Assembly (NCBI GenBank): GCA_020350205.1 | Contig: CP070707.1 | Location: forward strand, 3,163,563-3,227,562 | DNA from: a bacterium | GTDB taxonomy: Bacteria > Calditrichota > Calditrichia > RBG-13-44-9 | Length of the DNA: 64,000 bases | Reading direction: 5' to 3' | Shown here: positions 13,476 through 64,000 of the stretch, one piece after another | Numbering within the stretch: position 1 is the stretch's first letter | How the letters are laid out: each line of letters starts with the position of its first letter | Made by a program: the position numbers and the translations under genes | Notes under the pieces: generated by a model | Told to the model about the DNA's origin: nothing | The model's database searches: none | What the model saw: only the letters and a program-made list of their open reading frames with translations

Positions 13476-13644
13476 TTGAACAGCTGGGTATACGGCTAAG
13501 AGACAGCGTTCAGATTTTTGAAAAATACCGTAAGACAAAGATTTACTCTGTCAATTTTTTGGACTATGCTGGATAATAAATATTATGCTGAACAGACTGT
13601 TATTCTTTATATTTTTATTTATCTGGATAGTGAAAGGATCGACT

Positions 13645-14226
13645 ATGCAAGATTCCCCCTCCGGCCCCATTGTCGGCCTTAATGACCAGGAAAAAATTTA
13701 TCTTCTGAACCTGGTGAGAACCACCATTGTGACTGTTTTAGAAACCGGTGAACTGCCAGAGACAAAACCTGTTTCTGAGAAGATGAAAGAAAAGTACGGG
13801 GTTTTTGTGACATTGCATAAAGAGGGTAATTTGCGGGGTTGTATTGGGTATATTGAAGGCTTGGATCAGCTCTATAAATCCGTTATGAGTATGGCAAAAT
13901 CGGCAGCTTTTCAGGATCCACGGTTTCCTCCGGTTGAAATGAAAGAGGTTGACCGACTGGAAATTGAAATTTCAGTACTATCCCCGATCAAGAAAATTGG
14001 ATCGGTTGATGAAATTCAGGTGGGAAAGCATGGATTGATTATACAGCAAGGTCCTTTCCGGGGTTTACTTTTACCTCAGGTCGCGACCGAATGGGGATGG
14101 GACAAACAACAATTTTTGGAACAGACCTGCCGGAAGGCGGGATTATCAACTGATGCATGGAAAAATACTGACACCGATATTTATATTTTCTCTGCAGAAA
14201 TTTTCAGTGAAAATGAATTTGATTGA
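13645..14226 (+). CDS. AMMECR1-domain protein (AmmeMemoRadiSam system protein A)
   Basis: LRGCIGYIEG (CxGxxG-type AMMECR1 core) and the conserved C-terminal half. The ORF is open from 13585, but that N-terminal hydrophobic stretch is atypical for AMMECR1. The ATG at 13645 is preceded by AAAGGA. Confidence 0.75.
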   Translation: MQDSPSGPIVGLNDQEKIYLLNLVRTTIVTVLETGELPETKPVSEKMKEKYGVFVTLHKEGNLRGCIGYIEGLDQLYKSVMSMAKSAAFQDPRFPPVEMKEVDRLEIEISVLSPIKKIGSVDEIQVGKHGLIIQQGPFRGLLLPQVATEWGWDKQQFLEQTCRKAGLSTDAWKNTDTDIYIFSAEIFSENEFD

Positions 14227-14250
14227 AAATTTTTAATTGATTTTTTCCTT

Positions 14251-14420
14251 AGCTCCGAAAATGTTTTTCTATAAGTCATTCCGACCAAAGCGAATGAAGT
14301 GAGCGAAACGGAAGAATCTATAGAAATTGGAAAAATTTTTTCCCGCTAAGCGGGACTCAAAATGACAAAAATTTGTAATTATAAAAAGTATATTTATTTG
14401 GAGCCGTATTCTTCGGAGCT
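14251..14420. repeat. MITE-like 170-bp element bounded by perfect 9-bp inverted repeats (AGCTCCGAA ... TTCGGAGCT)
   Basis: Terminal inverted repeats at 14251-14259 and 14412-14420. Inside are a GTCATTCCG motif (14276) and a perfect hairpin TCCCGC-taa-GCGGGA (14341-14355). The element has no coding capacity and lies between the AMMECR1 and LemA genes. Confidence 0.45.
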
Positions 14421-14545
14421 TGGGCAATAATCATAAATTTTTGTTCATAATCTCACTTTTATAACTTAAATTTCCCTGAAAATTATGACAGTGATGGTCG
14501 ATAAATGTGCTTTAGTCTGACATTGAATAGAGGAAGGAAAGAATA

Positions 14546-15151
14546 ATGGGTAAAATGGCAAAGATCCTGATAGGTTTAGGAATTTTGGTGATCGTGGTTA
14601 TTTTAATTGCAAGCTGGTTATTTGGCATACGAAATAATATGGTAACCCTTGAAGAAGGGATTAATAGTAGTTGGGCGCAAGTTCAGAATCAATATCAGCG
14701 CAGATATGATTTAATACCTAATCTGGTTGAAACTGTCAAGGGTTTTGCAAGTCAGGAAAAGGATGTTCTTTTGGGGGTTACCGAAGCGCGAGCCAAGGCT
14801 GGCGGTGTTATGAATATATCCCCGCAAACCCTGGAAGATCCACAGGCATTTGCCCGTTTTCAGGAAGTACAGGCCGGCTTAGGAGCGGCATTGCAGAGAT
14901 TACTGGTGGTCGTAGAACGTTACCCGGATCTAAAATCCAATCAAAATTTTCTAACCCTTCAGGCTCAACTCGAAGGTACGGAAAATAGAATAGCGGTCGA
15001 ACGCCGAAGATTTAATGAAGAGGTACAGGCATATAATAGTTATATTCGCAAGATACCACAAACTTTTGTGGCCAGCCTTTTCGGATTCCAATCCAAGGCT
15101 TATTTTCAGGCAGTTGCTGAGGCGGAGCAAGCACCTCAGGTGGAATTCTGA
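14546..15151 (+). CDS. LemA family protein
   Basis: N-terminal transmembrane helix, then MVTLEEGINSSWAQVQNQYQRRYDLIPNLVETVKGFA...VTEARA, matching the LemA consensus. Confidence 0.85.
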   Translation: MGKMAKILIGLGILVIVVILIASWLFGIRNNMVTLEEGINSSWAQVQNQYQRRYDLIPNLVETVKGFASQEKDVLLGVTEARAKAGGVMNISPQTLEDPQAFARFQEVQAGLGAALQRLLVVVERYPDLKSNQNFLTLQAQLEGTENRIAVERRRFNEEVQAYNSYIRKIPQTFVASLFGFQSKAYFQAVAEAEQAPQVEF

Positions 15152-15248: not shown

Positions 15249-16382
15249 TTATTCCAGAAATTGGTTTTTCCGGGTCTCCTGCAAGAGATTGTTAATGATG
15301 TATTTATAATCACCCGGCCGATGACGTGTCCATTCCCGTTGTCTGAAGTAACTGGGTCCTTTACTGATAATTTCTGGAATTATGGACAGGTAAGGAATGG
15401 ACTCCTCATAGGCAGAGTTTTTTGAAAATTCCAGTAATTCTTCATAGAGGGTACATACCACTCTTTTCATTTTATGAGTTTTTCCTTTTTTATTCATAAT
15501 GACTTCACCCTGTGTCCCATACCGGGCTGCACGCCACTTGTTTTCCTCCAGAATCCAGCGTTCCAGGCGTGGATTTTTCCCATTTTTTTCAAATTCATCA
15601 CTGAATTTAATGACCAGCAGGTAAATCAGAGCGGTTAAGGCCATATTTTCTTTTAACGTAGGCATGGCGTCACAAACCCGGATTTCTAAAGTGCCAAAAA
15701 TAGGATGAGGGCGAATATCCCACCATAAATCTCTGACGGTATCAATTGAATTTGATCTGATGAGATTTTCCACCAGTTCACTATATGCTTTCCAGTTTTT
15801 AAAGTAGTAGGGAATTCCGGCATTAGGAAGTTCTTCGAATATTTTAATACGGGTTGTGGCTAACCCGGTATCAAAGCCATTCCAGAAGGGAGAACTGGCG
15901 GACAGAGCGATCAGATGGGGGATATAATTGGTAAGCCGATTCATAACATATATTGCCTTATCGGCATTATTTACCCCGATGTGAACATGCAGTCCAAAAA
16001 TAAGGAATTGTCTGACCGGCCATTGAATTCTGTGCAACAAATTCAGGTATCGTTCTTGTTTGGTAATTTCCTGCTGCTGCCAATTGGAAAAAGGGTGACA
16101 TCCTGAGATCAGTATATCCATCTCATGCTGGTCCGCGATTTCCTGAATAATGCTTAGATTTTGGGTGAGATTTTCTTCTACCTGTTTAAGTGTCTCACAT
16201 ACCGGGGTATTAATTTCAATTGTTGAGTTAAAAAGTTCCGGTTTGAACAAAACCTCGCCGGACAGCTGGGATAAAACTATTCCAGCTCCCGGTACCAGTT
16301 CTCCGGTACGCTTGCTAATCGTCTGAACTTCCAGTTCAATTCCGATGGTTGTATGAGAGGCCGCATTAAAATTTATATACAT
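15249..16382 (-). CDS. carboxylate-amine ligase, glutamate-cysteine ligase family 2 (YbdK-like)
   Basis: TIGIELEVQ near the N-terminus, then GCHPFSNWQQQ...ERY, FGLHVHIGV, ALSASSPFW and WWDIRPHP.FGTLEIRVCD. These align with the YbdK/GCS2 consensus. Confidence 0.75.
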   Translation of the reverse strand: MYINFNAASHTTIGIELEVQTISKRTGELVPGAGIVLSQLSGEVLFKPELFNSTIEINTPVCETLKQVEENLTQNLSIIQEIADQHEMDILISGCHPFSNWQQQEITKQERYLNLLHRIQWPVRQFLIFGLHVHIGVNNADKAIYVMNRLTNYIPHLIALSASSPFWNGFDTGLATTRIKIFEELPNAGIPYYFKNWKAYSELVENLIRSNSIDTVRDLWWDIRPHPIFGTLEIRVCDAMPTLKENMALTALIYLLVIKFSDEFEKNGKNPRLERWILEENKWRAARYGTQGEVIMNKKGKTHKMKRVVCTLYEELLEFSKNSAYEESIPYLSIIPEIISKGPSYFRQREWTRHRPGDYKYIINNLLQETRKNQFLE

Positions 16383-63553: not shown

Positions 63554-63575
63554 TATATCAGAATGGTCCACCCTT

Positions 63576-63768
63576 GTCATTCCCGAATGTTTCAGTCGGC
63601 TTCTCATCCGGCTTTAGACGGAGGATCTACTTATGTCCCTCCCTGGAGCCTGGTTCCTCCCGAAGGGACCACTTTGTGGCCTCAATCCCTGACGGGACGA
63701 TAGTAAACACCCAACCTGTCATTCCCGCAATCCCCCAAACTTTCATCCCCGAATGTTTCTGTCGGGGA
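63576..63768. repeat. two degenerate direct copies of a GTCATTCCCG...CCCGAATGTTTC(A/T)GTCGG hairpin-containing unit
   Basis: Copy 1 runs 63576-63600 and copy 2 runs 63718-63768. Copy 2 carries a ~23-nt internal duplication and a clean CCCCGA-9nt-TCGGGG hairpin. Both are in non-coding DNA after the peptidase terminator, and they share the GTCATTCC(C)G head with the 14276 element. Confidence 0.4.
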
Positions 63769-64000
63769 TCTATTTTATAAAAAAATACCAAAGATGGGAT
63801 CAGGATCACAAAAACAAAGGATTTTCTCAATATTTTAGGATATATTTTGTATTCGAGGAAGTTCATCTTTAACTTCCTCTTCCCAGTTTAAGGATCATGA
63901 CCATAGGAAAGTGTGTCCAGTGGCTTATATCTATCTCATTATTTCGATAAACATGGCGATTGCCTCCTTTATCATGATTCAGCATCGTAACAAAATGGTT

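Follow-up and report, generated by a model that had tools for sequence, protein, structure and literature searches.

A 200-bp non-coding element between the AMMECR1 and lemA genes of a Calditrichota bacterium, a probable MITE derived from an IS1595-family insertion sequence

The AMMECR1-lemA spacer and its counterparts in relatives

Within the 64-kb stretch of DNA that we analysed (hereafter the window), an AMMECR1-family gene is followed on the same strand by a LemA-family gene, and much of the 319-bp spacer between them is taken up by a 200-bp non-coding element with terminal inverted repeats, flanked on both sides by a short direct repeat. The features of the locus are listed below by window position; L numbers denote the loci retrieved for comparison, and IS stands for insertion sequence.

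13585-14226, plus strand: AMMECR1-family gene, the upstream neighbour (named from the Pfam labels of its orthologues)
14227-14235, no strand: left copy of the duplication (AAATTTTT at 14227-14234 or AATTTTTA at 14228-14235)
14236-14435, minus strand: the whole element, probably a MITE, 200 bp, non-coding; extra relative to L002-L007, with both ends matched by the IS-end consensus
14236-14259, plus strand: left terminal inverted repeat (ATTGATTTTTTCCTTAGCTCCGAA), two mismatches to TGATTATTGCCTTAGCTCCGAA
14266-14326, plus strand: hairpin 1, with arms TTTCTATAAGTCATTCCG and CGGAAGAATCTATAGAAA and a 25-nt loop, from the predicted fold
14341-14355, no strand: hairpin 2, TCCCGC-TAA-GCGGGA, preceded by a T-run and terminator-like on the minus strand only
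14356-14366, minus strand: second head, inverted (minus strand GTCATTTTGAG), which together with the head at 14275 brackets the inner module GTCATT...AATGAC
14367-14411, minus strand: AT-rich subterminal segment with partial homology to the 5' untranslated end of the full-length IS (compared by eye with L034 and L062)
14412-14435, minus strand: right terminal inverted repeat (reverse complement TATGATTATTGCCCAAGCTCCGAA), equivalent to the IS end that precedes the transposase gene
14435-14443, no strand: right copy of the duplication (AAATTTTT at 14435-14442 or AATTTTTG at 14436-14443)
14444-14545, plus strand: native lemA-proximal spacer, outside the element, aligning with L002-L007 and L001
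14546-15151, plus strand: LemA-family gene, the downstream neighbour (PF04011)

The window holds one copy of this element and no transposase gene. The longest ORF inside the element, on the minus strand, measures 52-53 aa; a protein search with the 53-aa ORF for miscalled gene copies gave no homologue, and tblastn with the transposase of the full-length IS described below (L034) found 0 matches in the 64-kb window.

Three related lineages (L002/3, L004/5 and L006/7), whose LemA proteins are 93%, 94% and 86% identical to that of the window, conserve the gene order rubrerythrin-Memo-AMMECR1-LemA-GCS2-adenosine deaminase, and their AMMECR1-LemA spacer measures 111-112 bp against the 319 bp of the window. 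Alignment with these relatives places the extra DNA in a single block, from ~14228 to ~14434, and leaves the lemA-proximal 100 nt still alignable; at the empty sites, the relatives carry a single AT-rich copy of the target. The first-pass annotation, made from the sequence of the window, had proposed looking for absence of the segment at orthologous sites, and these three lineages have an AMMECR1-LemA spacer without it. The insertion postdates the split from the relatives whose LemA is 93-94% identical. The best named homologues of the window LemA come from Caldithrix and Calditrichia MAGs, and an exact look-up of the protein found no identical sequence on record.

A Logan contig from an independent sample of the same species (L061, run SRR15144438) encodes an identical AMMECR1 (193-aa product); it runs on into the element, whose first 94 nt it matches at 100% identity, and there comes to its end. 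Because this independent contig holds the beginning of the block in identical form, the inserted block is no assembly artefact. The assembly of SRR15144438 breaks within the element at the end of L061 (window 14328), at the GGAAAAATTTTTTCC palindrome, and resumes 190 nt further on at the start of L001 (window 14520), so that the support from L061 covers the left half of the element.

The left copy of the duplication begins right after the AMMECR1 stop codon TGA (14224-14226), and the conserved lemA-proximal 100 nt, including the ribosome-binding site, are intact. The effect of the insertion on AMMECR1 and lemA is probably neutral.

Terminal repeats, target duplication and the probable IS1595-family parent

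The segment had first been described as MITE-like, 170 bp long and bounded by perfect 9-bp terminal inverted repeats. Those repeats are present (AGCTCCGAA at 14251-14259 and its reverse complement TTCGGAGCT at 14412-14420), but they are only the core of imperfect terminal repeats of 22-24 nt (14236/8-14259 and 14412-14433/5), which extend outward and bring the true size to 200 bp. By itself, such a repeat does not rise above chance in the 64-kb window, which has 98 perfect 9-nt inverted repeats with arms 20-200 nt apart against ~74 in Markov-1 simulations. The longer pairing, of 14238-14259 with 14412-14433, spans 22 nt at 82% complementarity, and an outward extension this good occurs in only ~0.3% of simulated 9-mer pairs. 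The sole other 9-nt inverted-repeat pair in the window that extends outward as well (9/13) lies at 15328-15402, within a GCS2-family gene on the minus strand.

With the tips set as in the IS (TATGATT...AATCATA), the element runs from 14236 to 14435, 200 bp; an alternative reading of the ends shifts it one base leftward, to 14235-14434. The score of the flanking duplication depends on this 1-nt choice. An 8-bp direct repeat, AAATTTTT, flanks the element at 14227-14234 and 14435-14442 (8/8), whereas in the IS-tip register the flanking repeats are AATTTTTA and AATTTTTG (7/8). A target-site duplication, which the earlier reading had suggested as a check, is therefore present, as the 8-bp AAATTTTT.

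Each arm of the window element lies two mismatches from a 22-mer IS-end consensus, which 0 of 100 window shuffles matched. The family-wide end sequence is TGATTATTGCCTTAGCTCCGAAA, preceded by A or TA and set in A/T-rich DNA; the left tip of the window element is ATTGATT in place of TATGATT. Judging by the mismatches that both repeats carry, this copy seems to be ageing, and because of the altered left tip and the two mismatches per repeat it may be no longer mobilisable.

We searched 185,579 species, each represented by one genome, with a two-arm consensus, TGATTNTTNCCNNAGCTCCGAA, and obtained 49 loci against roughly 17 expected by our own arithmetic for 18 specified bases; none of them had the pair of ends seen in the window element. 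About 22 of the 49 are in Calditrichota MAGs; a distance of 61-85 nt to a contig end is common, as would be expected of a repeat that breaks assemblies. Sixteen matches, mostly 61-85 nt from contig ends, fall in a single MAG, JAFGSO01 (Calditrichaeota Zod_Metabat.906). At least 16 contig ends of this MAG stop 40-150 nt within the same element end (TGATTATTGCCTTAGCTCCGAAATTTTTTGATATAAGTCAAT...), the loci concerned being L010, L013, L015, L017, L025, L026, L028, L037, L039, L040, L046, L048, L052 and L056, and L027 is a complete, 365-bp copy of the JAFGSO01-type MITE; the JAFGSO01 element is a high-copy MITE that fragments the assembly. Many contig breaks in Calditrichota MAGs coincide with the family ends (TATGATTATTGCCTTAGCTCCGAAA), which can therefore serve as an aid to assembly and annotation.

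Seven further matches (L020, L022, L029, L030, L035, L045 and L051) come from JAXHVC01, a MAG labelled Chloroflexota. They are copies of a ~250-bp MITE that shares the terminal sequence and has 8-bp duplications (such as TTATAGAT/TTATAGGT at L022), and they reflect either an IS1595 clade that has spread across phyla or a mis-binned MAG. Viral contigs, scanned for the repeat consensus and also for a 25-mer from the interior of the element, gave no match.

One locus, L034 (Caldithrix sp. RBG_13_44_9), carries a complete IS of 1025 bp with perfect 21-bp repeats (TATGATTATTGCCTTAGCTCC) and an 8-bp duplication (TATCTTAT); other full IS copies are found at L062 and L063. The L034 IS has one ORF, of 302 aa, that matches Zn_ribbon_IS1595 (PF12760, 2e-11) and DDE_Tnp_IS1595 (PF12762, 5e-26) and scores 224 bits against the NCBIfam model NF033547, "IS1595 family transposase" (cut-off 75). 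The stop codon of this ORF lies inside the terminal repeat (L034 572-595), where the protein ends in ..TITFSELRQ*, and the C-terminal motif ..TITF(S/A)ELRQ* or a closely similar one is present in all 120 of the listed homologues (P0121-P0240). At this IS end, the 9-mer TTCGGAGCT corresponds to the codons F-S-E-L of the transposase C terminus, and it is conserved across phyla because protein-coding and DNA-recognition constraints are combined in it.

The left repeat of the window element is the counterpart of the IS end into which the 3' end of the transposase gene extends, and the minus-strand translation of this repeat still reads ..TFSELRKK; in the orientation of the parent IS, a transposase would thus sit on the minus strand of the element. 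At the right end, ~45 nt resemble the untranslated 5' end of the IS when compared by eye. Short, non-coding copies with two such ends occur at other loci as well, with a length of 279 bp and an 8/8 duplication (TAATATTA) at L011 and of 199 bp with an 8/8 duplication (TTTTATTA) at L043; L014, L016 and L022 have 8-bp duplications that match at 7/8. The duplications of these short copies are A/T-rich.

The segment between AMMECR1 and lemA is very probably a MITE, a 200-bp non-coding derivative of a Calditrichota IS1595-family insertion sequence. The first-pass proposal of a small non-autonomous mobile element in place of ordinary promoter sequence holds on the strength of the empty sites, the target-site duplication, the IS1595-matching ends and the copies elsewhere. 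We propose that the element has retained ~25-45 nt of each end of its parent, including the 22-24-bp repeats that the transposase would recognise, and that a zinc-ribbon and DDE transposase of the IS1595 type, supplied by a full-length copy elsewhere, would have mobilised it in trans. Staggered 8-bp cleavage of an A/T-rich target would then have duplicated AAATTTTT 3' of the AMMECR1 stop codon.

Sibling copies and the inner hairpin module

A metagenome scan that linked the terminal repeat to the GTCATT[CG]C head yielded four loci; only three or four members of the exact subfamily were recovered. L057, found in the JGI metagenome that also yielded two of the relatives, contains a copy of 244 bp that can be aligned with the window element over its full length at ~80% column identity; this copy lies between two unrelated minus-strand ORFs and has a perfect duplication, TTTCAAAA (8/8). 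A third member (L058a) occupies positions 1087-1319 of L058 and is flanked by AATAATAA/AATAATTA, and L060 is a fourth, partial member. The flanks of the window element, L057 and L058a differ, and each of the three has its own 8-bp duplication. The search for further copies with the same ends that the earlier annotation recommended has thus led to homologues at other loci (L057 and L058) in other assemblies. An exact internal 22-mer had no match in JGI metagenomes, and a blastn search with the insertion as query, covering the window and the first loci, gave chance short matches only.

Two observations concern the surroundings of these copies. At L058 1087-1545, two MITEs of different subfamilies with IS1595-type ends stand head to tail with the 8 bases AATAATTA between them, an arrangement that suggests a preference for insertion beside existing copies or into A/T-rich flanks. 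At the contig end of L060 (1-100), a perfect 27-nt palindrome (GGAATGACTTTTTAATAATACTTTTT ... AAAAAGTATTATTAAAAAGTCATTCC) flanks a 20-nt terminal repeat; this is a fold-back artefact of the assembly or else a genuine head-to-head arrangement.

Inside the window element, the head motif and the hairpin noted at first pass are both where they had been described. The head, GTCATTCCG at 14275-14283, is carried by hairpin 1, and the perfect TCCCGC-TAA-GCGGGA hairpin follows a T-run at 14341-14355; other copies of the subfamily have a different GC-rich hairpin in place of the latter. Head and stem of hairpin 1 are conserved at 10/10 positions in L057 and L058a and the second head at 10-11/11, and among the window element, L057 and L058a loop 1 is conserved at 21-22 of 25 positions compared with 17-20 of 24 for the terminal repeats. 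In these three copies the heads and loop 1 are also better conserved than the A/T-rich subterminal parts. In sequence conservation the inner module thus equals or exceeds the termini. An IS undergoing simple decay would not be expected to show this, and the module is not obviously IS-derived.

The copies differ by GC-rich mini-hairpins inserted in their loops. Mini-hairpins of the forms CTGTCCGGC..GCCAGACGG and GTCCGCC..GGCGGAC recur there (L057 2560-2585 and 2640-2665, L058 1160-1185, L054 and L027) and are absent from the window copy; possibly they represent one more level of nested mini-repeats. MITEs of other subfamilies that share these ends have other palindromes of the GTCATTGC type in the corresponding place (L043, L011/L014, L058b and L059).

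These features raise the possibility, which we regard as doubtful, that the element is composite, its outer shell being an IS1595-type MITE and its inner GTCATT...AATGAC module (14275-14366) a second unit, independently mobile or independently selected, of the REP/NTS/Ssn kind. Such a unit would have been nested in the shell or captured by it. A composite origin would fit the conservation of heads and loop 1, at least equal to that of the terminal repeats, and the different GTCATTGC-type palindromes at the equivalent position in other subfamilies. It would also fit the order of GTC, a palindrome starting with ATTCC and then C, which echoes the Neisseria NTS CGTCATTCCCGCGMAVGCGGGAATCYRG (PMC11893778), and the occurrence of a free-standing cluster of similar hairpins at 63572-63775. 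Several results speak against it, however. The published SRM motif, HGTCWYN(0-2)YYVSBRHN(0-5)WNVSBRGN(0-2)RNCYNB, has 0 matches on both strands of the window (shuffles average 0.06), and a screen for the GIY-YIG N-terminal motif, weak in that it used a regular expression only, found 0 matches among the ORFs of the window and of 60 fetched loci. The inner module is without a consistent duplication of its own, and its head coincides with (L/I/M)T codons of the C-terminal region of the transposase, so that it may derive from the IS. Outside MITEs, GTCATT[CG]C is mostly coding in 246 kb of Calditrichota loci. Covariation among four copies is not significant either: two stem pairs of hairpin 1 are changed on both sides and 85.8% of positions are paired compared with 43-50% in slid controls, but 133 of 500 shuffles did as well.

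A still less probable extension is that the inner module is functional itself. Its convergent GTC-headed hairpins (AAGTCATTCCGACC...GGAATC; ...CTCRAAATGAC) would then be a site for an Ssn-like or other ssDNA enzyme, or a mobile palindrome that nests in IS1595-type MITEs. If this were true, DDE-type MITEs in Calditrichota and neighbouring phyla would be carriers by which NTS/REP-type hairpin sites spread. The wider interest of the module lies in the fact that different MITE subfamilies with these ends all bear GTCATT-headed hairpin pairs at the same position.

The head had also been reported to recur at 63576-63768. The sites are there, with GTCATTCCCG at 63576 and 63718, but they belong to a different hairpin-repeat cluster: as further copies of the MITE they were rejected, having no IS1595-type ends and a similarity limited to the 8-10-nt head. 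Across the window there are 4 occurrences of the octamer GTCATTCC, against 2.5 expected. The cluster, at 63572-63775, consists of hairpin repeats downstream of a 670-aa gene and a terminator-like hairpin. Its units have the form GTCATYCCCGAATGTTTCNGTCGG(GGATC), with two copies 91% alike and 166 nt apart, namely TCATTCCCGAATGTTTCAGTCGG (63577-63599) and TCATCCCCGAATGTTTCTGTCGG (63743-63765), each then followed by GGATCTAYTT; a truncated third head, GTCATTCCCGC, lies at 63718. The cluster is NTS/SRM-like in form, has no match to the SRM motif and is unrelated to the MITE.

Alternative origins and comparison with known elements

A different history would have a full-length IS insert between AMMECR1 and lemA and then decay by internal deletion to a dead remnant of 200 bp. 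Both ends are indeed IS-derived, the left one still readable as a transposase C terminus, and the terminal repeats have mismatches. L057 and L058a nevertheless lie at other loci with duplications of their own and have the same non-IS interior as the window element; because the three have this interior in common, it is the miniature form itself that has propagated, and we consider decay in place very improbable.

Equally little speaks for a host cis-regulatory element or sRNA of the AMMECR1-lemA spacer, be it a promoter, an attenuator, a terminator or an sRNA gene. The segment is intergenic, AT-rich and hairpin-rich, folds with a z-score of -2.2 and has a terminator-like hairpin on its minus strand. 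It is, however, absent from the spacer of three related lineages that keep both genes, and its homologues lie in unrelated intergenic contexts. Rfam gave 0 matches at the gathering score across the whole window, and in a relaxed scan (E up to 10) of 14150-14620 only chance-level hits with E of at least 0.97, far under the cut-offs. A scan for promoters and terminators found no promoter excess and no plus-strand terminator; the sole terminator-like site is on the minus strand, where no gene needs one, and an intrinsic terminator of AMMECR1 was rejected on that ground. A tRNA/tmRNA scan found none.

A chance inverted repeat in AT-rich spacer DNA, to which the mere count of perfect 9-nt inverted repeats in the window might point, has practically no likelihood; it is refuted by the outward extension of the repeats, the target duplication, the relatives with empty sites and the homologues at other loci.

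We return, then, to the IS1595-derived MITE. Among other classes of short mobile repeats, Correia elements and IS630-type MITEs duplicate TA. The window element resembles Correia and Tc1/IS630-like MITEs in its size range (100-200 bp), its terminal inverted repeats and its intergenic position, and differs from them in its 8-bp duplication and in having another transposase family as its partner. A TA-duplicating MITE (Correia, IS630/Tc1-type) was rejected because duplications of 8 bp flank the window element and at least eight relatives. REP/BIME elements and PATEs have no long terminal inverted repeats or target duplications, and the REP head is GT[AG]G. Like REP/BIME-RAYT elements and the PATEs of IS200/IS605, the window element is intergenic, hairpin-forming and multi-copy; unlike them, it has 22-24-bp repeats and an 8-bp duplication, which are typical of DDE transposition, and assignment to REP/BIME (RAYT-associated) elements was rejected for this reason.

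NTS and SRM repeats are cut as ssDNA by the GIY-YIG nucleases SsnA, and in the Neisseria NTS the GTC ahead of the palindrome and the C that follows it are important for cleavage and binding by SsnA (PMC11893778). The inner module shares with NTS/dRS3/SRM a GTC head, a palindrome that starts from ATTCC(C) and a C directly after it (PMC11893778). The core of hairpin 2, TCCCGC...GCGGGA, equals the NTS stem core, and as in NTS both orientations occur in an intergenic setting. By contrast, the loops here are much longer (25-47 nt) and the hairpins lie within a DDE-type MITE. The likeness to NTS/SRM is a resemblance of the inner module, not membership.

The closest relations are with IS1595-family elements. 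The IS at L034 is typical of the family in its length of ~1 kb, its single ORF with zinc-ribbon and DDE_Tnp_IS1595 domains and its 8-bp, A/T-rich duplication; the window element is five times shorter and without transposase. ISfinder has an IS1595 subgroup with ends of the type CcTGATT, which the TATGATT tips found here resemble. The family has a single transposase gene with a zinc finger and a DDE domain and usually generates 8-bp duplications, according to the summary of Siguier et al. 2009 given in PMC8101967. The A/T-rich 8-bp direct repeats of ISApl4 include AAATTTTT itself (PMC12561309).

By itself the AMMECR1-lemA MITE matters little: it is ordinary selfish DNA, present in one Calditrichota lineage, one more selfish insertion in an uncultured bacterium of this phylum, although its presence or absence is a marker at strain or lineage level. 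Its nearest published counterpart is the 165-bp IS1595-type MITE of Haloquadratum walsbyi, which has a 25-bp IR and an 8-bp DR and is paired with ISHwa6 (PMC3852290, Table 4). Both are short (165-365 bp across the two systems) and non-coding, with ~22-25-bp repeats that match an IS1595-family IS, an 8-bp duplication and copies at several loci. They differ in host, a member of the Calditrichota as against a haloarchaeon, in their unrelated sequences and in the GTCATT-headed inner hairpin pair of the element described here. IS1595-derived MITEs are thus already known, and the AMMECR1-lemA element adds one from a poorly studied phylum.
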